A stretch of DNA of 36,011 bases from Candidatus Levyibacteriota bacterium (GCA_016204535.1 JACQKL010000007.1:1-36011), one strand, 5' to 3'; counted from the stretch's first letter, positions 5,053-15,666 are shown. Notes: generated from the letters alone by a model not told the origin. Program-made: numbers and translations.

Positions 5053-6714
5053 TCAATTCTCTTCGCATGCTTTAATAAATCCTAAGAATATTGGGTGAGG
5101 TTTTAGAGGGCGGCTTTTGTATTCGGGATGGCCTTGGGTACCAAGATAAAAAGGATGGTTTTCTTTTGGCAATTCTATTATTTCTGCCAAATTTTCAACG
5201 ATTGATCTTGCGCTAATAATTAAGCCGTTTTTTTCAAAATCTTTTGAATACTTATCATGAAATTCATATCTATGCCTATGCCGTTCGCTAGTTAATCCCT
5301 TACTTTTGTTTGTAAACCCCCCATATTTATCATAAAGCTCAAAAGCTCTGGTATTTGGTTTTACTTTTGCCTCCCAAGCACCAAGTCGCATGGTTCCTCC
5401 ATATGCCCTTCTTTTCACTATACTTTCTTGTTTTGGCATCAGATGAATTACCGGACGAAAGGTCTTTGGACTATTTTCTGTAGTGTCTGCATCCTTCCAA
5501 CCTAAAATATCTCGAGCGAATGCAATGACAGCAAGTTGCATGCCATAGCAAAGCCCAAGGTACGGTATATTGTTTATTCTCGCATAAGAGGCTGTTGTTA
5601 TCATTCCTTCCGCACCTCTTTCTCCCCATCCAATCGGCACAATAATCCCATTTGGCTTGCCGATAATATTTTCAAGATGTTTCTCCTCAGCCTGCACTTT
5701 TTCAGCGTCTATCCATTTTGTTTTTACCTCAACTCCAATCTTCCAGCTCGCATGATCAATTGCATCCAAGAGTGCTGCGTAAGAATCTCTTAGTTGGTAA
5801 TCTCCGGTTCCAAAATATTTTCCAATAATTGCAATTTCTATTTTTTTATCCTTTTTGCTTTTTATTTTTTCATTTAGTTTTTCCCATTCTAAAAGCTTTG
5901 GTAATTTTATTGGCAATTTAAGTTTTTTGAGAATCTTTTTTTCCAGATTTTGTTTGTGAAGGAGAAGCGGTATTTCGTAAATATAGGGAAGATCTGGATT
6001 AGAAATAATGTCCGAAGGATGCATGTTGCAGAAAAGTGCAAATCTGTCTTTTCTTCGTTGGTCTAAATATTTCTCAGATCTAGCAATTACAAAATCTGGT
6101 TGGATCCCCATAGAATTAAGTGTTCGAACTGAAAGTTGGGCAGGTTTTGTTTTGGGTTCTCCGATATGACGGGGAGTGGGAACATAGGTAACATGAATAT
6201 GAATAACGTCTTCAGGGTTTTTTAAAGTCATTATTCTTGCCGCTTCATAGTAAAATATATTTTGGTATTCCCCTGCCGTGCCTCCCAGCTCAATTAAAAC
6301 AATATCTGCATTTTTTTTACGAGCAAGGTAATTTATTCTTCTTGCTATCTCATCAGTTATGTAGGGAATAGCCTCAACATCTTCACCGTTATATTCAAAT
6401 CTTCTTTCTTTATCGATAACTGTTTTATAAATTCTTCCCATCGTGATGAAATTATCTTTTCCCATATCCTCGTCTAGAAACTTTTCATAGCTACCAATGT
6501 CCATATCTGCTTCCGTCCCATCTTCACATAAAAAGGGGTCCCCGTGTTCAATTGGATTTATTGTACCTGCGTCTAAATTTAAATAATTTTCAAATTTTAT
6601 TATTGTTACTTTGTAGCCGGATGCTTTAAGAAGAAATGCGATAGAGGCCGCTGTAGTACCCTTTCCAATTCCGGATATTACACCTCCTGAAACAAAAATA
6701 TACTTAGTGTGCAC
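5053..6714 (-). CDS. pyrG: CTP synthase
   Basis: KYIFVSGGVISGIGKG, GLCYGMQ nucleophile, ERHRHRYE, QGHPE. Confidence 0.97.
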   Translation of the reverse strand: MHTKYIFVSGGVISGIGKGTTAASIAFLLKASGYKVTIIKFENYLNLDAGTINPIEHGDPFLCEDGTEADMDIGSYEKFLDEDMGKDNFITMGRIYKTVIDKERRFEYNGEDVEAIPYITDEIARRINYLARKKNADIVLIELGGTAGEYQNIFYYEAARIMTLKNPEDVIHIHVTYVPTPRHIGEPKTKPAQLSVRTLNSMGIQPDFVIARSEKYLDQRRKDRFALFCNMHPSDIISNPDLPYIYEIPLLLHKQNLEKKILKKLKLPIKLPKLLEWEKLNEKIKSKKDKKIEIAIIGKYFGTGDYQLRDSYAALLDAIDHASWKIGVEVKTKWIDAEKVQAEEKHLENIIGKPNGIIVPIGWGERGAEGMITTASYARINNIPYLGLCYGMQLAVIAFARDILGWKDADTTENSPKTFRPVIHLMPKQESIVKRRAYGGTMRLGAWEAKVKPNTRAFELYDKYGGFTNKSKGLTSERHRHRYEFHDKYSKDFEKNGLIISARSIVENLAEIIELPKENHPFYLGTQGHPEYKSRPLKPHPIFLGFIKACEEN

Positions 6715-6767
6715 GACTCATATTATCAAGAATTCAGATCTTTCGTCAACAACTAGATTTATCAATG

Positions 6768-6868
6768 GAGCTCCTTTACGAAAAAGTTCGGACCGCTTTC
6801 GTATTATCATTGTAGTCGCTCACTTCGTTCGCTCCTATTATTTATATTGCTCGGCCTTCGGCCTCGCT
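6768..6868 (+). repeat. Left end arm; inverted repeat of 11266-11366
   Basis: 101 bp, 3 mismatches by manual alignment. Confidence 0.95.
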
Positions 6869-6924
6869 TTAGTATTTTTTGCACGGACCGAAAGTGCGCG
6901 ATTTTTTTCGGAACTCTTGGGAAT

Positions 6925-6933
6925 ATTATATCA
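6925..6933 (-). promoter_or_regulatory. Extended -10 promoter pointing outward across the left end
   Basis: TGaTATAAT on minus strand. Confidence 0.45.
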
Positions 6934-6954
6934 GGTTTTTCCTAATTCCGTTTC

Positions 6955-7390
6955 AACCCACCCACCCGTTTATGGTGGCGGCGACCCCGCCTTTGGGCGC
7001 TAGACCCGCCTTGGGGCGGGTTTGCCCACAGTTTTCGTTTTTTAAATTCCGCTACAGTATCTTCCCCACCCGCCGCGGGCGGGTTTTCTTTTAGCGTTAC
7101 TTAGTTTCGTTGCGCCGTCGGCGGGATGTGTCCGCTATTCGCCCCCGCCTTAATTATTTTACCCCTTCCCGTTCATGTTGCCGCAACGAAGTTCGGTTGG
7201 CGAACCCGCCGTCTTCTAATACAAAAATATTCTTCGGCGTGTTCGCTTGGTCGGGCTTCCTATCCGAATGAAATTCTTAAGTCGAGTTTTCCCTGACGGG
7301 CGCCCTCCTTTTAGCAACGACTCCATCGGGAGCGGGGGCGGCGGACCGCCAGAAAGAATCGGCCAGATTGGTGGAAATTGGCCGATTCCC
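6955..7390 (+). other. GC-rich highly structured non-coding region (ncRNA or single-strand origin/promoter candidate)
   Basis: Stems 7002-7023, 7068-7084, 7106-7114/7182-7190, 7200-7211/7235-7246, 7130-7148/7332-7346, 7356-7365/7379-7388; no credible ORF. Confidence 0.6.
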
Positions 7391-7406
7391 GTGCTAGACT
7401 AAATTT

Positions 7407-8099
7407 ATGCCAGACGATCCGATTCAAGACAACCAAGACCAGACGACGAGCCAACCGGAACCGCAACCGGAAGAATCAAAACCAGTTGAAGACCTGTCCT
7501 CCGAAGTCTCGACGAAGGAGGAAAATCCGAAGCCCGAAGATATTCCAACTCCTGAACCGCCGAAAGAAGGGGCTCCAGCCGACCTGTCCTCCGAAACCTC
7601 GGTGAAGGAGGAAAATCCTGCGCCATCCGAACCAGAACCGGAGAAAAGGCCCGATGAACCGAAGCCGGAAGAACCAAAGCAAAGCGAAGAAAAGAAATCC
7701 GAAGATTCCAAGCCTTCCTTGCCCGCCGAAGCTTCAACGAAGGTGGGAGAGCCTGAAATAAAGATTGTCGAGAAAGAAGTCATCAAAGAAATTCCGGTTG
7801 AGGTTATAAAAGAAGTGAAAGTTGTCGACGAAACAGAACTTGGCAAGCAACTCGATGAGAAATTCAAAGCAAAGCTTCTGGAAAATAAAAAGAAAGCCAA
7901 CGAGGCGAGATCTCAGAAGAAGAAAGATCATCTGGATAGAATTGTTGAGCTGGCAAAGAAAAAAGAGATTAATAATCAGGATGTCAGAGATTTATTGCAG
8001 GTTTCACAAAGCACGGCGACAAATTACTTAACAGAATTGACTAAATCTGGTAGACTAAAGTCGGAAAAGAAGGCTAAGGCAAAAGTATATAAAAGTTAA
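7407..8099 (+). CDS. Pro/Glu-rich low-complexity protein with C-terminal winged HTH
   Basis: C-terminal INNQDVRDLLQVSQSTATNYLTELTKSGRL wHTH; extended -10 TGcTAGACT at 7392-7400, 6 nt before ATG. Confidence 0.8.
   Translation: MPDDPIQDNQDQTTSQPEPQPEESKPVEDLSSEVSTKEENPKPEDIPTPEPPKEGAPADLSSETSVKEENPAPSEPEPEKRPDEPKPEEPKQSEEKKSEDSKPSLPAEASTKVGEPEIKIVEKEVIKEIPVEVIKEVKVVDETELGKQLDEKFKAKLLENKKKANEARSQKKKDHLDRIVELAKKKEINNQDVRDLLQVSQSTATNYLTELTKSGRLKSEKKAKAKVYKS
7491..7747 (+). repeat. Three in-frame palindromic REP-like units (7491-7528, 7581-7618, 7718-7747)
   Basis: TCCTCC-GAA-GTC-TC-GAC-GAA-GGAGGA, TCCTCC-GAA-ACC-TC-GGT-GAA-GGAGGA, CCCGCC-GAA-GCT-TC-AAC-GAA-GGTGGG. Confidence 0.8.
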
Positions 8100-8107
8100 A
8101 GTTATGA

Positions 8108-8140
8108 CGTTGTACTATGCTACAACGCTACAATAGTACT
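8108..8140 (+). promoter_or_regulatory. Candidate operator/promoter of TrpR-like gene
   Basis: GTACTAT(8112-8118)/ATAGTAC(8133-8139) and CGTTGTA/TACAACG inverted repeats overlapping -10 TACAAT (8129-8134). Confidence 0.5.
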
Positions 8141-8428
8141 ATGGCAACACTTAATTTAGAGAAAGATAAAAAGTTATTGGTAGCAACCCTACGAAAATTA
8201 AAATCCTCAAAAGATTTATCAGCTTTTCTTGATGATCTTTTAACCGAAGAGGAAATTCTTGATTTAGCTCAAAGAATTAAAATCGCAAAATTAATTCTTG
8301 ATGGAAAAACCTATGATGAGATTGCAGTAAAAGTTGAAACTTCCACATCCACAGTTTCAAAGATTGGTCAGATAATTAAATACGGCAAAGGCGGGTTACA
8401 GAAAGTTTTGGAAAAAATAAAATTATGA
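8141..8428 (+). CDS. TrpR-like YerC/YecD family repressor
   Basis: FLDDLLTEEEILDLAQRIKIAKLILDGKTYDEIA..STSTVSKI..YGKGG. Confidence 0.88.
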   Translation: MATLNLEKDKKLLVATLRKLKSSKDLSAFLDDLLTEEEILDLAQRIKIAKLILDGKTYDEIAVKVETSTSTVSKIGQIIKYGKGGLQKVLEKIKL

Positions 8429-8739
8429 ATCTATATTTCATTATTCTAGTTGTTTTTATCTCTGTGATGTTAATTATTTATTTTTGCCTAAGTAAGCATA
8501 ATCTTGAAAAATTTTTCCCAAAACCAGAACTTGATATGGCTAGCATAGCAGGAGTAATATCTCAAATTATCAAAACTCATGCACAGATAATTATTGGATC
8601 ATTTGTAATCTTGGTTTTAACGGCTTTATTAATAGAAAATAAAATATCTTCAGAGGCTGCGATGCCGATTATCTCACTGATTACCGGTTACATTCTCGGT
8701 TCAGAGATAAATACATATAAAAATAAAGATAAGGGTTAA
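8425..8739 (+). CDS. Small membrane protein, hypothetical
   Basis: ATGA coupling with upstream gene; about three hydrophobic segments. Confidence 0.7.
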   Translation: MNLYFIILVVFISVMLIIYFCLSKHNLEKFFPKPELDMASIAGVISQIIKTHAQIIIGSFVILVLTALLIENKISSEAAMPIISLITGYILGSEINTYKNKDKG

Positions 8740-8862
8740 TCAATATGGGAAAATGCTAGGCAAGGGCGGGAGACGCTGATTTGATGTTTTTAACAAGCAT
8801 TTTCTACTTGATAATTTTTAAACGAAACATTATGATTAGCTTGGGATGGAAAGGCATATCTC

Positions 8863-10053
8863 ATGTTGAAGAAAATAATTAAATTTATTTCAAGTTTACT
8901 CATCTGGTATTTCATTGGTTCCTTGTTCTATTTAACAGCAATAGGAGTCAAGGTTTTAAATAGTTCTCTTCCTACATTTTTATTATTCATAACAATTTTT
9001 CTTGTTGTGTGGAGACTATTACGAAAGACCTTGCAAAAAATAAATATTGGCAACGATATTCGCATCAGAAGATTTTATAGCCGTTCTCGAACACTTCTTA
9101 CTGTAGGAGCAATACTTCTATTGATTTATCAACTTATAGTTTCCCCATTTATACTAAAACCGCAGAAGGTAACCGTTTCCTATGGTAGTTTAAAAAGCGG
9201 TACTTTATTGACTTTTGTATACCATAATGGATTCTCACGTATAAACAGAGCTGATATTATTATCTACTTTTCACCTAAAAACTCAGGAGACACAATTACT
9301 AGGGTTATTGGCATTCCGGGAGATAAGATTATATTAAAAGGTGGATTTGTATATCTAAACGGTAAATTTTTAAAGGAACCATATACGATTCAACCGAGAA
9401 AAACATGGACAGATTATTCAGGGGTTATAATAGGCAAAAATTGCGAGGAGATAATTGTACCCCAACGCAAATACTTTGTATTAAGTGACGATAGGGAATA
9501 TGGATTTAATTCTTTGGTTGAAGGATTCATTTCGGAAGACAAAATAACAGATTATTTGCCAGCTAAGCTCCTAAAAAATTTTATATTTAACCCTAACGAT
9601 TTGTTTAACAATAATAGAGATACATCCAAAGACATGGAGCTAGTAAAGGAGCCCATATTGGATACTCAAGATTATGTAAGGCTTATAAATATAAAACGGC
9701 AGGAAAATGGAGCTGAACCATTAAGGTACGACAAGAAGCTAGAGCGATCGGCAGATTTAAGGTTGCAGAATATGCTAAAGCTCGATGATCTTTCTTATGA
9801 AGCAACGAAGAGCGGATACGTAGCGTGGAAAGCTCTCGCTGATGTCGGATATAACGATAAAGCCTATTTATATTTAGAGCGAACTCTTGAGGCAAATTTT
9901 AACTCCAATTCATTATCCAATTTTTATTGGGAATTCGGAGATAGGGAAAACTTTCTTAGTAAAGAGTTGAAATATATAGGGGTAGTTTCTAAAATTGTTG
10001 ATATAGATAGTTGCCCAAAACAGGTTATTGTTCAGCATCTTCTCGGTCAGTAG
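8863..10053 (+). CDS. Membrane protein with degenerate signal peptidase I (S26) domain and C-terminal CAP domain
   Basis: RVIGIPGDKI..VYLNGKFLKEPY, VPQRKYFVLSDDR (S26-like); INIKRQENGAEPLRYDKKLERSA..YIGV (CAP-like); promoter TTGATA-17-TATGAT at 8808-8836. Confidence 0.8.
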   Translation: MLKKIIKFISSLLIWYFIGSLFYLTAIGVKVLNSSLPTFLLFITIFLVVWRLLRKTLQKINIGNDIRIRRFYSRSRTLLTVGAILLLIYQLIVSPFILKPQKVTVSYGSLKSGTLLTFVYHNGFSRINRADIIIYFSPKNSGDTITRVIGIPGDKIILKGGFVYLNGKFLKEPYTIQPRKTWTDYSGVIIGKNCEEIIVPQRKYFVLSDDREYGFNSLVEGFISEDKITDYLPAKLLKNFIFNPNDLFNNNRDTSKDMELVKEPILDTQDYVRLINIKRQENGAEPLRYDKKLERSADLRLQNMLKLDDLSYEATKSGYVAWKALADVGYNDKAYLYLERTLEANFNSNSLSNFYWEFGDRENFLSKELKYIGVVSKIVDIDSCPKQVIVQHLLGQ

Positions 10054-10151
10054 CTTATTCAAAGAGAGCATGTTCGATTACTTTGCTCTTTACCTCAAGA
10101 ATATATTCTCAAAGAGCCATTAGGAGATGCAGCTCTTAACTAGGGGTGGGG

Positions 10152-10180
10152 TTGACAAGAATTAGTTTCCAAAGTATGCT
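10152..10180 (+). promoter_or_regulatory. Sigma70-type promoter
   Basis: TTGACA-17bp-TATGCT. Confidence 0.6.
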
Positions 10181-10218
10181 ACTGTTGACAAAAGAATTTT
10201 ATGGAGGAAGGACGAAGC

Positions 10219-10368
10219 ATGAATTGCAGACATCAATATCTTGTTGAGAAAATTAAGGACATGCCAAATGTTGACTTTCATCATGCATGTGATGGAGATC
10301 TTTCAAAAAGGTGGAAAACTTCTATGTGTAAATTGTGTGGACATATAAAAACCGAACCAATTTTTTAG
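10219..10368 (+). CDS. 49-aa putative zinc-binding protein (not in ORF track)
   Basis: MNCRHQY...SMCKLCGHIKTEPIF*, CxH...CxxC; upstream promoter and GGAGG at 10203-10207. Confidence 0.55.
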   Translation: MNCRHQYLVEKIKDMPNVDFHHACDGDLSKRWKTSMCKLCGHIKTEPIF

Positions 10369-10465
10369 ATATTATCATCTTTTTTTTTGAAGAAATAATA
10401 CTATGAATATTTTTGTGGAGAGGAAAAATTGTGTTTATCCTGAAGACTTGAAGTAAAATACGCTT

Positions 10466-11089
10466 ATGGAAACAACCGCCTCTGCTTTACTCGATCAAAT
10501 TAACCTAAGTTTAAAGCCTCTTGGGAATTTAAATAAACCATTCTATTTTGACCCCAATTTTCTTGGAGCAATGCTCGCGTCAGTTGCCGCTTTGGGTATA
10601 GCTATATTTAGCGAACAACTTAGAGGCCTATGGAGAAAAACAAATCTTACAGTGCAGAGAATACTTCCAAATGAACAAGGAAATGGGAATTCTATCCACT
10701 ACAGACTTTTAATAGTAAATAAAGGTAGCTATCCAGCAAAAGATGTAGAGGTGTATGTAGATAAGATCTACGAAAATAATAGAGAAAGGAGGAATTTCCT
10801 GCCAGTTCCTTTAAGATGGGCTCACGCCCGAGCCTATATGACTGCCGGAGTCTATAGAAATATACATCCTAATCAATCTGTCTTACTTGATTTTTGTGAA
10901 CTTATTAAGAGCAATAATCTGCTTAAATTAAGTCTAGCTGCGGGAGATGAAGTTCCAGATTATTGCATACTGCATGGTGGAGACACAAAGGTAGCAATAA
11001 AGATATATCAGGAAGATGGAAAGACAATTACGACAAAATTCAAAATCTCGTGGCAAACTAATTTTAATATACAGATTTCCGTGATTTGA
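10466..11089 (+). CDS. Hypothetical protein with N-terminal TM helix and beta-rich domain
   Basis: 207-aa ORF; -10 TAAAAT 6 nt before ATG. Confidence 0.7.
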   Translation: METTASALLDQINLSLKPLGNLNKPFYFDPNFLGAMLASVAALGIAIFSEQLRGLWRKTNLTVQRILPNEQGNGNSIHYRLLIVNKGSYPAKDVEVYVDKIYENNRERRNFLPVPLRWAHARAYMTAGVYRNIHPNQSVLLDFCELIKSNNLLKLSLAAGDEVPDYCILHGGDTKVAIKIYQEDGKTITTKFKISWQTNFNIQISVI

Positions 11090-11138
11090 TATAGAAAAAC
11101 TCAGTTGAAATCTTCCATAAAGCTGCTACACTAAAAAC

Positions 11139-11327
11139 GTGATCAAACTTTCCTTTCGGCTTTTTAATGGCCGTTTTGAACAGATCCGAATGGATTTGAG
11201 CACACCAGAACGGCCATTTGAATTTTTGGAAAAATTTTTGCGTTTTTTCTCGCCGACAGTTTTTGAGCGAGGCTCAAGGCCGAGCAATATAAGTAATAGG
11301 AGCGAACGAAGTGAGCGACTACAATGA
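11139..11327 (+). CDS. Small leaderless ORF upstream of recombinase, running into the inverted attP copy
   Basis: TTGAAA(11105-11110)..TGcTACACT(11124-11132), GTG 6 nt later; 62 aa. Confidence 0.45.
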   Translation: MIKLSFRLFNGRFEQIRMDLSTPERPFEFLEKFLRFFSPTVFERGSRPSNISNRSERSERLQ

Positions 11328-11465
11328 TAATACGAAAGCGGTCCGAACTTTTTCGTAAAGGAGCTCAGAATGGGACTTTCCCAAAGCCAAGGTTTTGAGG
11401 CTGGGGGAAGAAAACCCCGAATAAAGCTCCGCAAAGCCTAAATTGTAGGCGGGGAAAAGTTGCCG
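11266..11465 (-). repeat. Internal inverted copy of the reconstituted attP junction
   Basis: Reverse complement reads [12908-13010] joined through the shared GAGC to [6768-6868]: ...GTCCCATTCT-GAGC-TCCTTTACG... Confidence 0.95.
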
Positions 11466-11510
11466 GTTAAAAGAGAAAAAAAACGCAAAAATTGGGGAAA
11501 TAAGACTGCC

Positions 11511-13072
11511 ATGAAATATATAGCGTACTGTAGGAAATCAACAGACGAAAAGGACAGGCAAATTCTCTCGATAGAAGCTCAAATAGCAGAGCTAACTGAA
11601 TTTGCCAAACGAGAGGGCTTGGAAATCTCGGAATTTATCACGGAAGCCAAGACAGCCAAGATTCCCGGCCGTGAACAATTTGACAGGCTTTTAATGCTGC
11701 TTGAGAAAGGAAAAGCTCAAGGAATTATCTCCTGGCACCCGGATCGTCTGGCAAGAAATTCCATAGATGGCGGAAAGATCATTTATTTACTTGATACAGG
11801 CAAACTTTTTGACCTGAAATTCCCCTCCCATTGGTTTGAAAATACCCCGCAGGGGAAATTTATGCTTAGCATTGCCTTTAGTCAATCCAAATACTACATA
11901 GACAATTTAAGCGAGAATGTTAAAAGAGGTTTAAGAAGAAATTAAGAAATGGCGTATTACCTTCTAAGGCTCCATGGGGATACAAAAATAATGAGGAGTT
12001 TGGGACTATTGAAATTGACGAAGTAAAATCAAAAATCCTTAAGAAAGCCTTTGAATTGTTTGCTAACGGAAATAAATCATTTACCGACATCTCAATCTAT
12101 CTTTTTAAAAATGGTTTTACTGACAAGTATGGAAGACAACTAAAGATAGACAGGCTTAAAAATGCTTTAAGCAACAAATTCTATATCGGGATCATCTATT
12201 ACGGGGGAGAATATTATGAGGGAAAGCATAAATTATTTATTTCGAAAACATTATTTGATCAGGTACAAAAACAGTTCAAGCTTAGGGAAAGAGCCAGGCC
12301 CAATAACAAACACCATTTATCCTTCTTGGGGCTCATGAAATGCGGAGAATGTAAGGCTTCAATTACGGGAGAGATGAAAACTAAATTTTACAAAGGAACG
12401 CAAAGAAAAGCTGAATATATTTACTATGGTTGTACTAAAAAATTGAAAAACTGTTTGCAGAAACCAATTCCCGAACCGGAATTGGAATTGCAGATAACAA
12501 AAGCCATTAGCGATGTGGCTTTGCCCGAAGAATGGGCTGATGATTGGCATAAATGGCTCAAAGGAGACGAATTACAGGAAAAGCAGTTAAAAGAAGAAAA
12601 TTTACAAAACCTAGATGAGGAAATTAAAGCACTGGACCAAAAATTAAATTTTCTTCTAGACAGCTACTTGGACAACGTGATTGACGCCGATATTTACAAG
12701 AAAAAGAAGAATGAATTATTCGAAGAAAAGTTAAGAAAACAGGAAGAAATTACCAAATTTCAGGCAAACGGTTCCGGTTGGCTCGGACCTTTCAGGGAAT
12801 TCATAGATAGCGCCATGCGGTGCGAAAAAATCGCGCGTGCAAAAAATACTAATGAAGAATTGGCATTCTTCGCAAAAACTGTCGGCTCGGACTTCTTTTT
12901 AACTGATCGGCAACTTTTCCCCGCCTACAATTTAGGCTTTGCGGAGCTTTATTCGGGGTTTTCTTCCCCCAGCCTCAAAACCTTGGCTTTGGGAAAGTCC
13001 CATTCTGAGCGGGATACGAGAATCGAACTCGCTTCTCTACCTTGGGAAGGTAGCATACTACCAGTGTACTAA
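11511..13072 (+). pseudogene. Large serine recombinase (catalytic, recombinase, zinc-ribbon and coiled-coil domains) split by a 1-nt frameshift near 11935-11945
   Basis: MKYIAYCRKS (catalytic Ser), DRLARN, LSENVKRG; second frame continues KLRNGVLPSKAPWGYKN..., CGEC...YYGC...C. Confidence 0.88.
12908..13010 (+). repeat. Right end arm; perfect inverted repeat of 11363-11465
   Basis: 103/103 identity by manual alignment; lies inside recombinase coding sequence. Confidence 0.95.
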
Positions 13073-13078
13073 TCCCGC
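13008..13078 (-). tRNA. tRNA-Gly(CCC)
   Basis: GCGGGAT acceptor stem, CTACC-TTCCCAA-GGTAG anticodon arm, GTTCGATT T-loop, U discriminator. Confidence 0.95.
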
Positions 13079-13100
13079 AATAATATTATTTTATCATAAC

Positions 13101-13685
13101 TTACCGCGGGAGTTTGAGGACGTTTCCTGAGAAAATAAGGTCGGGATTTGAGAGATTATTTACTTTTGCAAGCTCAACCCATTTATAACCATCACCATAT
13201 GCTCTAACCGAGATATCCCATAAATTATCACCACTTTTGACCGTATATGAACTTCCTGTAATTGAACTCTTTTCAGTTACTTGTGTCGGTACTGTAGGAG
13301 TCGGTTCCGATTTTTGCGTAATGGTTGGAATTGTTAATTTATTTCCGGAATGGATTATATCGGGATTTTGCAACTTATTTGCTCTTGCTAATTCTGTCCA
13401 TTTATATCCATCTTTATAAACGTTCTCAGAAATAGTCCACAGATCGTCACCAGGTTTTACTGTATAAGTTGATGAAGTCTTTGATTCATTAGATTCTTGT
13501 TTTTCAAGATTTGATTCTTCTTTGGTAGAACTCGTTTGTGTGTTTTTAGCATTTCTTACAAAAGAAATAAATAAAATCCCTGCAACCAAGACAACTATCG
13601 CTCCTAAAATAAGACTTGTATAAGATTCTGTAAGTTTAAAATAGCTAAAAATTCCGCTTCTTGCTTTTCTATTTTGTTTTGCCAT
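13101..13685 (-). CDS. Membrane-anchored protein with two LysM domains
   Basis: TM helix; YTVKPGDDLWTISE..IHSGNKLTIP and YTVKSGDNLWDIS..IFSGNVLKLP. Confidence 0.92.
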   Translation of the reverse strand: MAKQNRKARSGIFSYFKLTESYTSLILGAIVVLVAGILFISFVRNAKNTQTSSTKEESNLEKQESNESKTSSTYTVKPGDDLWTISENVYKDGYKWTELARANKLQNPDIIHSGNKLTIPTITQKSEPTPTVPTQVTEKSSITGSSYTVKSGDNLWDISVRAYGDGYKWVELAKVNNLSNPDLIFSGNVLKLPR

Positions 13686-13749
13686 ACATTTTAAGATATA
13701 AATTTGTGGGCAGAATTTTCTATGGGGCAGAAGTAAATCGACTTACTAG

Positions 13750-13823
13750 CGGGGTGAACGGGACTCGAACCCGCGGCCTCTTCCGTGACAGGGAAGCGCT
13801 CTAGCCAACTGAGCTACCACCCC
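13750..13823 (-). tRNA. tRNA-Asp(GTC)
   Basis: GGGGTGG TAGCTCAGTTGGCTAGAGC, CT-GTC-AC anticodon loop, GGTTCGAGTCC. Confidence 0.95.
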
Positions 13824-13896
13824 TCCCGTTTTTTAAGTTACTGATAGCCTAGCACATAATTGAAGTCTAGTCAATACTTTGATATTATCACATAAA

Positions 13897-15666
13897 ATGA
13901 GCAATCAGCAAATAGCAAAACTATTTAGAAATGTAGTAGCAGCATATTCCATTAAAGATGAGAAAAAATTTCATTTTCAAATTTTGGCTTACCAAACTGC
14001 TGCGGAGACAATATTAAATACGACAGAGGAAATAAAAGATTTATACAAAGAGGGGAAATTAATTTCTCTTCCAGGCATTGGAGAGACAATTAAAGGTAGA
14101 ATCGAAGAGTTGTTTAAAAAAGACCATGTAGCTCATTTTGACTGGGTTTTAAAAGGAATACCAAAATCCGTTTTTGTCCTGATTGAGATACCAACTATTG
14201 GGCCCAAAAAAGCTTACAAATTAGTTAAAGAATTTTCCCTAGAAAATCCAGATGAGGTAATAGAAAAGTTAATTTTCAAAGCTAAAAACGGAGAAATAGC
14301 TAAAATCCCGTCTTTCGGAGAAAAGTCTGAACAAGACATTTTAAGAGCACTTTTGGAATACAAAACTGGTAAAAACAAGACTGCAAGAATGGTTCTTCCT
14401 TATGCGGCTGAAATAGCGGAAAGAATAATTGCCTATCTTAAAAAGAGTTCTGTCATAGCTGAAGCCGTGGTACTTGGTAGTCTCAGACGTATGATGCCAA
14501 CAGTTGGAGACATCGATGTTGCAGTGGCTACTAATGAGCCTGAAAAGGCAATCCAATATTTTGTTTCTTACCCTTATAAAGATAGAATTGTCGAAAAAGG
14601 CCCCCGGACAGCTTCTATACTTACTTCCGGGGGTAAGCAAATAGATTTAATGGTTCAACCGACCGAAGGTTTTGGTGCTCTATTACAACATTTTACTGGA
14701 AGTAAAGCGCATAACGTACACCTAAGAGAATTTGCTCTCAAAAAAGGCCTTTCTTTATCAGAAAAAGGCATTAAAAACCTAAAGGGAAAAGGCCAAAAAC
14801 TCAAAACTTATGATAGTGAAGAAAAATTTTACAGTGCGCTTGGATTAAGCTGGATTCCTCCAGAAATAAGAGAAGATACTGGCGAGATTGAGCTCGCAGA
14901 GCAACAAAACCTTCCTCAATTAGTTGAGCTTTCAGATATAAAAGGCGATTTGCATCTTCATTCCGACTTTCCGATTGAGCCAAGCCACGATCTTGGACAT
15001 AATTCTTTAAATGAAATGGCTGAATACGCTAAAAAATTAAACTATGAGTATGTTGGTTTTTCAGAACATAACCCTAGTATTTCAAAACATTCAAAAAATG
15101 ATATTTATTTTTTAATTGCAAGAAGAAATAATCTAATTGAACAAATTATTTCGAGTAATAAAGGTATACGAATACTTAAGCTACTCGAAATAGACATCTT
15201 AACCGATGGATCCCTTGCTATCAATAATAATTCTTTAGATTTACTCGATGGCGCGATTGTTTCAATTCATAGTTCTTTTAATACAGACAAAAACGAAATG
15301 ACTAAAAGGGTAATCGAAGGACTCTCCCATCCAAAAGCTAAAATACTCGCTCACCCAACTGGTAGACTTCTTAATAAACGACCAGGTTACAATCTTGATT
15401 TCGAAAAATTATTTGATTTTTGCAAAAAAAATAACAAAGCACTTGAAATTAACAGTTGGCCTCTGAGACTTGATTTGCCTGATTCATTAATCAGACAAGC
15501 TGTAAAATATAAGATCAAGATGGTAATTAATACCGACAGTCATTCATTATCGGAAATGAACTTAATGAAATATGGGGTAGCAATGGCTAGAAGAGGCTGG
15601 GCGGAAAAATGTGATATAATAAATACGTTGCCATACGAAAAACTCTTGGATTGGTTTAAAAAGTAA
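13897..15666 (+). CDS. polX: DNA polymerase X family / PHP domain protein
   Basis: HhH LPGIGE, GSLRR..GDIDV, HFTGSKAHN, GDLHLHS, AHPTGRL, NTDSH; promoter TTGAAG-17-TATTAT supports ATG at 13897. Confidence 0.93.
   Translation: MSNQQIAKLFRNVVAAYSIKDEKKFHFQILAYQTAAETILNTTEEIKDLYKEGKLISLPGIGETIKGRIEELFKKDHVAHFDWVLKGIPKSVFVLIEIPTIGPKKAYKLVKEFSLENPDEVIEKLIFKAKNGEIAKIPSFGEKSEQDILRALLEYKTGKNKTARMVLPYAAEIAERIIAYLKKSSVIAEAVVLGSLRRMMPTVGDIDVAVATNEPEKAIQYFVSYPYKDRIVEKGPRTASILTSGGKQIDLMVQPTEGFGALLQHFTGSKAHNVHLREFALKKGLSLSEKGIKNLKGKGQKLKTYDSEEKFYSALGLSWIPPEIREDTGEIELAEQQNLPQLVELSDIKGDLHLHSDFPIEPSHDLGHNSLNEMAEYAKKLNYEYVGFSEHNPSISKHSKNDIYFLIARRNNLIEQIISSNKGIRILKLLEIDILTDGSLAINNNSLDLLDGAIVSIHSSFNTDKNEMTKRVIEGLSHPKAKILAHPTGRLLNKRPGYNLDFEKLFDFCKKNNKALEINSWPLRLDLPDSLIRQAVKYKIKMVINTDSHSLSEMNLMKYGVAMARRGWAEKCDIINTLPYEKLLDWFKK

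Follow-up and report, generated by a model that had tools for sequence, protein, structure and literature searches.

Elements moved by large serine recombinases (LSRs) are well known from phages, with integrases such as phiC31 and Bxb1, and from the transposons Tn4451 and Tn5397, which rely on TnpX and TndX. The recombinases themselves are major genome-engineering tools, and their one-way action is normally reversed by a separate protein. Here, we describe an LSR-type element of 6,239 bp (positions 6768–13006) at the 3′ end of a tRNA-Gly gene in Candidatus Levyibacteriota bacterium (GCA_016204535.1 JACQKL010000007.1:1-36011). Positions are counted along the whole 36,011-nucleotide stretch that was analyzed, called the window below, which is one entire contig of a 605-kb genome in 47 contigs from a Patescibacteria-type organism. 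With the described LSR elements, the element and its relatives have in common the three-domain recombinase, an empty site, a crossover identity of 2–6 nt, and an attP site beside the recombinase gene. They depart from them in an internal inverted attP copy of ~200 nt, in 70–220-nt near-perfect inverted repeats around both arcs of the element, and in reciprocal short complements of the arc ends; moreover, no conserved directionality factor was found, and they insert at the 3′ ends of many different tRNAs or into recombinase genes of their relatives. In short, the enzyme and the insertion chemistry are those of the known LSR elements, whereas no description of the internal inverted attP and the end complements was found in the literature searched (supplements aside).

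Tycheposons, found in Prochlorococcus, are likewise small cargo elements that pile up beside tRNA genes. Of 501 tycheposons, 474 carry tyrosine recombinases, and the elements are flanked by partial tRNA copies as direct repeats (10.1101/2020.12.28.424599). The present elements differ in their large serine recombinase, in duplicating no part of the tRNA, and in having repeats that are inverted and internal. The attC sites of integrons and the attP of the CTX phage would be similar in another respect, provided that the double-stranded site is built here too by intrastrand pairing, with an integrated form that keeps both segments. The window would permit a recombination site built in this way, as far as can be read from sequence alone. 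Those systems, however, use tyrosine recombinases and a one-strand exchange, whereas here there are serine domains only and stems of 100 + 100 nt.

Our central observation is a network of same-strand complements within the element. The rule that emerges on comparing the segments is that three units, namely the element as a whole and its recombinase and cargo arcs, each have a same-strand complement of their own joined ends. This network is neither chance, nor an artifact, nor a decaying relic. We read the complements, tentatively, as pairing elements that act when the mobile element is single-stranded DNA; we consider this quite possible and weigh it below against several rivals. Together, the inverted attP and the co-varying arc-end complements point to a nucleic-acid-based control layer that was previously undescribed. 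As a family of ultra-small groundwater bacteria, these elements also represent a common small vehicle of cargo genes in Patescibacteria, where mobile elements are poorly known.

The element, its boundaries, and the internal attP copy

The limits of the element follow from an empty site. In three of four groundwater sequencing runs, from two studies, contigs join position 6767 directly to 13007, with a shorter side of only 26 nt; here, as in every comparison with sequencing runs below, the evidence consists of assembled contigs, not reads. Four letters, GAGC, fit both sides of the joint and form the boundary identity, the crossover region (6768–6771, repeated at 13007–13010). In run X2, the depth is ~24 in the element interior as against ~62–74 in the flanks. 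Taken together, the joint and the depth contrast mark 6768–13006 as a discrete insertion carried by part of the population, and it is a mobile element. The target, tRNA-Gly(CCC), lies on the minus strand (13007–13078), and its 3′ end overlaps the outer end of the right terminal arm by 3–4 nt. No tRNA fragment is present at the left end of the element, where GAGC are the sole letters in common.

Two long inverted repeats organize the element (all coordinates are on the + strand unless stated otherwise). The left terminal arm, A (6768–6868), whose outer end at 6768 is set by the empty-site joint, is the reverse complement of A′ (11266–11366; 101 nt, 97%). Similarly, B (11363–11465) is the reverse complement of the right terminal arm, B′ (12908–13010; 103 nt, 100%), which overlaps the end of the recombinase reading frame. 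A′ and B overlap by GCTC, and we call the combined segment M1 (11266–11465). Since A and B′ are the ends of the element and A′ and B abut with this 4-nt overlap, M1 is the reverse complement of the joined ends, that is, of attP. The element consists of two arcs, a cargo arc (6869–11265) and a recombinase arc (11466–12907), each bracketed by a ~100-nt inverted repeat. The LSR gene itself (11511–13006, + strand) encodes Resolvase, Recombinase, and Zn_ribbon_recom domains (PF00239, 6e-22; PF07508, 1.2e-08; PF13408, 8.9e-08).

This layout is widespread. Relatives of the recombinase numbered 88 in species genomes and 309 in metagenome contigs, from which 80 and 79 loci were kept; viral contigs yielded none. 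In the 122 loci that extend 60 nt or more beyond the gene, an inverted repeat of at least 40 nt surrounds the recombinase gene in 108 and a direct repeat in none. The A′ partner lies upstream in 55 of 55 elements, and A′ and B abut or overlap by 0–9 nt in 40 of 51. The 3′ end of a convergent minus-strand tRNA is at most 6 nt away from the outer end of B′ at 53 of 98 loci; 12 tRNA species serve as targets. The overlap between tRNA and B′ is mostly 3–6 nt, and the overlap at tRNA ends amounts to 3–7 nt, with the 4 nt of GAGC in the window. Of a further 32 loci checked, 21 (including L076, 5663–10266, and L034) are insertions near codon 120 of a recombinase gene that belongs to another member of the family. 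These insertions, all of one subfamily, split the resident gene, and some (L076, L034) have a tRNA after the outer element. Nine of the elements inserted in recombinase genes have a 2-nt overlap (TC on the + strand), which fits a serine-recombinase crossover. The layout is even found twice in a relative from another genus.

Two candidates were dropped on these counts. A flipped state of M1, with direct-repeat or tandem arrangement, occurs at none of the 122 loci, and a serine-invertase DNA switch is at odds with the single orientation of the elements (no direct repeats, A′ partner always upstream, tRNA always convergent). The yeast 2-micron plasmid and similar circles, whose two inverted repeats each contain a recombinase site, would be comparable if the element were circular, as two inverted repeats would then split a recombinase arc from a second arc. 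Here, in contrast, no flip isomers were found, the recombinase gene always converges on the tRNA, and the reverse order of the repeat never occurs (0/122, 0/55).

Short complements of the arc ends in the window and across the family

Exactly where the long repeats stop, shorter pairings begin. A first-pass annotation of the window had listed five of them, and on direct comparison all five exist, four being perfect and one containing a 2-nt bulge. Positions 6869–6885 are the exact reverse complement of 12836–12852 (17 nt), 6896–6907 pairs with 12825–12836 (12 nt), 11252–11265 with 12873–12886 (14 nt), and 11466–11472 with 12897–12903 (7 nt). The bulged pairing joins 11233–11251 to 11473–11493, with 16 nt exact between 11233–11248 and 11478–11493. 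These clamps, as we call them, abut the inner ends of the long repeats without a gap.

The pairings connect the edges of the cargo arc with the tail and leader of the recombinase gene. At the left edge, 6869–6907 is an inverted copy (‘Larm’) of the tail stretch 12825–12852, its master, which encodes ..EKIARAKNTN; the copy is flush with the inner end of A and split by ~10 extra nt (6886–6895). At the right edge, 11252–11265 is an inverted copy (‘Rarm’) of the tail stretch 12873–12886, with codons ..AKTVGS, and is flush with the inner end of A′. Beside it lies 11233–11251, an inverted copy of the recombinase leader 11473–11493 that is apparent both from sequence comparison and from a single-stranded DNA fold. 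The recombinase arc opens with GTTAAAA, the partner of 12897–12903, followed by the leader segment (together 11466–11493). Exactly between the two copied tail stretches, the coding sequence holds a small hairpin (12853–12872) with a 7-bp stem, GAAGAAT/ATTCTTC, and a 4-nt loop. In this way, tail stretch and leader, the joined ends of the recombinase arc, have their reverse complement beside A′ in the cargo arc (11233–11265). The joined ends of the cargo arc have theirs within the recombinase gene (12825–12886), where the small hairpin interrupts it.

Chance matching was measured in 2000 dinucleotide shuffles of the four 40–92-nt windows adjoining the repeat ends. Pairs of 17, 16, and 14 nt were reached 0, 0, and 3 times, respectively, and three pairs of at least 12 nt together not once; the 7-nt pair, however, was reached 373 times and is not significant alone. 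Over 6000–14000, there are eight inverted exact matches of at least 14 nt, compared with a mean of 1.15 and a maximum of 5 in 200 second-order Markov simulations. When 11220–11505 is folded as single-stranded DNA, the 11233–11251/11473–11493 stem is closed in the minimum-energy structure as well as in the centroid (z = −2.71; 0/200 shuffles as good). In addition, contigs from another sample (run X4) bridge 6868/6869 and 11265/11266 with at least 58 nt on each side. An origin of the segments in chance, low-complexity A/T runs, or faulty assembly could appeal to their A/T-richness, to the 7-nt pair, and to the many contigs that begin or end at the long repeats. Nonetheless, for the network as a whole it is refuted by the shuffle tests, by a layout that returns in 108 of 122 loci of many assemblies, and by the independent contigs across the junctions, and we give it almost no credence. 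The earlier remark that a simple duplication or assembly error would not generate such a network is borne out by its recurrence in more than 100 contigs from many studies. The long repeats also explain why Patescibacteria contigs frequently break beside tRNA genes.

Two more perfect pairs were seen in the window, 7447–7463 with 12769–12785 (17 nt) and 7408–7421 with 11740–11753 (14 nt). They link the first codons of the first cargo gene with internal recombinase codons, and the 17-nt pair is unlikely to have arisen by chance.

The covariation check that the first-pass annotation had proposed came out in favor of the pairings: the copies vary in sequence between elements, yet each fits the gene of its own element. 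In 52 distinct elements, copies of at least 14 nt were found for the leader in 38, for the tail-distal stretch in 31, and for the tail-proximal stretch in 23, whereas same-strand controls gave 0/52 for each copy and a control region pair also gave none. These copies take 29, 20, and 19 distinct sequence forms, respectively, and pairs taken across elements match at 14 nt or more in only 10–15%. When cargo arc and recombinase module are compared in 51 elements, 114 exact matches of at least 14 nt are inverted and one is direct, at stereotyped positions. Copies stand at both inner edges in 36 of the 51, and they touch the long repeat (0 nt) in 18 of those 36 on each side. The two masters are collinear and 16–37 nt apart in 34 of 36 elements, and the gap between them holds a perfect stem of at least 6 bp in 29 of 34, compared with 5% (52 of 1020) of windows drawn at random from these genes. 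A second subfamily has the same geometry at another place, with masters at gene nucleotides 86–120 and 137–156 around another hairpin; there, the tail end and leader are copied contiguously beside A′.

Part of the network had been said to constrain recombinase codons, and part of it does lie in them, at a place where a hairpin is kept while its sequence and the encoded residues vary between elements. Stem sequence and loop size (3–11 nt) differ from element to element, which fits a structure better than a fixed protein site. The clamps might even so be protein-binding sites, that is, extra half-sites for the recombinase or a host factor that serve the synaptic complex or mark the active attP copy. 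Inspection by eye finds GGCTCGAAC or GGCTCGGAC at the end of the tail-distal stretch, and TCGAAC-like words also in outer A and in the T-loop of the tRNA that is targeted, at the spacings given below. The codons concerned are GC-rich within an AT-rich gene, and one attP copy alone is ever used (A′ partner upstream in 55/55). A protein, however, would need neither perfect reverse complementarity over 14–34 nt, nor copies that follow the synonymous changes of their master, nor a flush position at a helix end opposite a hairpin with a variable loop, and we find binding sites a very unlikely explanation.

TCGGAC/TCGAAC words were noted by eye at 6786–6791, 12887–12892, and 13023–13028. The distance between word and crossover is 16 nt in A and 12 nt at the T-loop region of the tRNA; in L076, the corresponding distances are 17 and 12 nt. 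In large serine integrases, a 4–5-bp shift of one binding motif distinguishes attP from attB half-sites.

Comparison of close relatives indicates where the clamps belong. Related elements with different cargo have in common A plus ~30 nt, as well as 50–140 nt before A′; cargo is swapped inside the clamps, which are therefore backbone and not cargo. A 28-nt noncoding copy is identical in L057, L061, and L069, and 26 nt of it are present in L067, while backbone identity is 83–87% in the pairs L069/L061, L069/L067, and L061/L057. Copies that stay identical despite such divergence are under selection and are not decaying relics.

These comparisons also bear on the idea that the copies are footprints of nested insertion. 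On this account, the cargo arc would stem from a second, inverted copy of the recombinase module that was hit at its small hairpin by the repeat-bounded recombinase unit; the open reading frame (ORF) of that copy would have been replaced by cargo, and its flanks kept alike by conversion or by common expression signals. Read on the opposite strand, the cargo arc does run from the tail-distal copy through the leader copy and the ORF to the tail-proximal copy, which makes it a circular permutation of the recombinase module. The one cargo gene of small elements diverges from the recombinase gene and starts straight after the leader copy, the cargo ORF of L153 terminates in frame within the tail copy (..EKIARAKN..), and family members do enter each other’s recombinase genes, as the 21 of 32 loci above attest. 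On the other hand, the hairpin is wholly missing from the copies, which thus lack the half-site expected after conservative recombination. The islands have sharp edges and are perfect although the neighboring backbone differs by 13–17%, and their 14–34 nt are too short for RecA-type conversion. The swapping of cargo inside the clamps and the orientation bias of 114 to 1 likewise speak against such footprints, and we consider them a somewhat unlikely source of the copies. A conservative crossover at the small hairpin was rejected as a simple model of their origin because no half-hairpin is found at the junctions.

A third subfamily (L049, L051, L073, L075) has patches of its own. The L049-type leader (−177 to −143 from the start codon) contains adjacent complements of recombinase nucleotides 367–384 and of the start-codon region (−3 to +14), which on comparison would be another complement of joined ends.

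Proposed pairing in single-stranded DNA

In the reading that we tentatively prefer, pairing would take place while the element is single-stranded, for instance as newly taken-up DNA or as a template in replication. A would then pair with A′ and B with B′, and both stems would stack on M1, so that the internal attP copy could serve as a built-in splint on which the ends meet and attP becomes double-stranded again. Clamps and small hairpin would link the stem tops in a multi-helix junction, and such a fold might lead to circularization or precise loss without a separate directionality factor. The flush four-way-junction geometry, the hairpin kept as a structure, and the strictly inverted orientation argue for nucleic-acid pairing rather than protein sites. 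The exact copy of the DNA crossover junction, in turn, argues for DNA rather than RNA.

Pairing could nevertheless serve control at the RNA level. Transcripts reading in from the minus-strand tRNA promoter or from a disrupted host gene would fold through the repeats, and the stems would cause the transcript to be cut or silenced; the leader copy would mask the ribosome-binding region of the recombinase, as in IS10, and the other patches would be antisense to the recombinase mRNA. The element always lies directly downstream of a transcribed tRNA or within a gene, 0–20 nt separate the end of the leader master from the ATG in 8 of 17 listed elements, the extra patches at 7408–7421 and 7447–7463 are complementary to internal recombinase codons, and the leader of the third subfamily holds an 18-nt complement of the start-codon region. 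However, RNA control gives no reason to copy the exact DNA crossover junction, perfect stems of 100–220 bp are unusual in functional RNA, and the two sense transcripts of small elements carry same-sense rather than complementary copies. Nor are G–U-compatible mismatches in excess on either strand: the long repeats show 30 G–T, 44 A–C, and 50 other mismatches for B/B′ in 5913 aligned positions, and 17, 18, and 19, respectively, for A/A′. We therefore regard RNA-level control as doubtful. Rfam searches of 6700–7450 and 11050–11560 gave nothing above chance-level matches, and a promoter scan found none that is convincing within A or at the center of M1, with a weak minus-strand match at 11470–11442.

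Among known systems, the bridge RNA of IS110 and the fold-back inhibition of IS10 are the nearest to such control, as sequences upstream of their recombinase genes are complementary to the element’s own ends or translation start. The present elements differ from them in enzyme class and in an end complementarity of 100 + 100 nt in place of short guides, and they are known to us as DNA sequence only.

Several points weigh against the preferred reading, pairing in single-stranded DNA. Serine recombinases act on double-stranded sites by double-strand cuts and need duplex partners, and recombination of a folded single strand would, by our reasoning, cap the chromosome ends with hairpins, so that the second strand would have to come first. 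No single-stranded form of the element was observed. The first-pass annotation had placed a multi-way junction in a single-stranded circle; the junction accords with the copies that sit flush with helix ends, but the circle finds no counterpart, with no circular contigs with terminal overlap among the 79 metagenome loci and no joined-end order (ends joined next to the tail) in the 55 elements, although on short contigs the joined ends are indistinguishable from the internal inverted copy. That annotation also had the clamps join both ends of the ~200-bp duplex; together with a straight duplex, they cannot form. As they link opposite ends of the duplex, they could close only if it were bent at its center, and the bend has to be assumed. 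For the integrated single strand, in which one of the two duplex strands would be interrupted at the center, a bend is plausible; for a straight duplex, it is not. Furthermore, 14 of the 122 loci have no repeat around the recombinase gene, and the third subfamily shows no match between cargo arc and recombinase module. Finally, the neutral-looking mismatch spectrum argues against RNA-type selection without proving a role for DNA.

A more specific version of pairing in single-stranded DNA would make the element self-splinting. The strand would fold, and its ends would be trimmed and sealed on the internal attP copy, giving a circle with a double-stranded attP. The substrate could be DNA from natural transformation, for instance, and neither a directionality factor nor homology with the new host would be needed. 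We think this version improbable; if true, it would amount to a new route of horizontal transfer suited to organisms that rely on DNA uptake.

Recombinase frame, related forms, and cargo

The LSR gene is the sole family-wide gene of the elements. No conserved second gene or directionality factor was found, such factors being too diverse to exclude by sequence. In the window, a 1-base frameshift near 11936 interrupts the gene. At this site, one contig of run X4 carries an additional C (depth 5.9 of 28.3), and by our reading this variant restores the frame, which makes the frameshift polymorphic. The possibility that the C-terminus of the recombinase is read through the tail copy was examined by eye and dropped: the frame is open in the window, but in L015 it runs for 21 codons and then closes. 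The promoter scan placed the pyrG promoter immediately outside the left end of the element.

Two observations concern related arrangements. In run X2, a contig of depth 4.7 joins 6834 to 11300, with a 22-nt palindromic filler between the outer two-thirds of A and the corresponding part of A′; it suggests a hairpin form devoid of cargo in a related strain or element. In genome G012 (L015), the left copy extends through B′ and a leader copy (L015 6352–6585; 209 nt, 82%), and a third, partial unit of A plus tail copy lies 3.6 kb farther left (L015 2798–2940). These extra units suggest stacked or older insertions.

Inside the clamps, the cargo arc (6908–11232, + strand) comprises a conserved noncoding stretch and five + strand ORFs. 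The stretch (~6950–7400) is GC-rich in an AT-rich contig, follows directly after the tail copy, and has no match in Rfam. It is kept in two elements of G012 at 76–78% identity (88.7% in one stretch) and might represent a structured RNA or else a region with a role in replication or regulation. Three of the five ORFs have Pfam matches, to a Trp-repressor-like protein, a small membrane protein (weakly), and signal peptidase S26 plus CAP; the remaining two have none. Across 54 elements, cargo arcs shorter than ~1.2 kb mostly hold one gene, usually divergent from the recombinase gene, and larger arcs mix strands. The one cargo gene of the small elements is variable; in L069 and L153, it encodes a small secreted or membrane-type protein.

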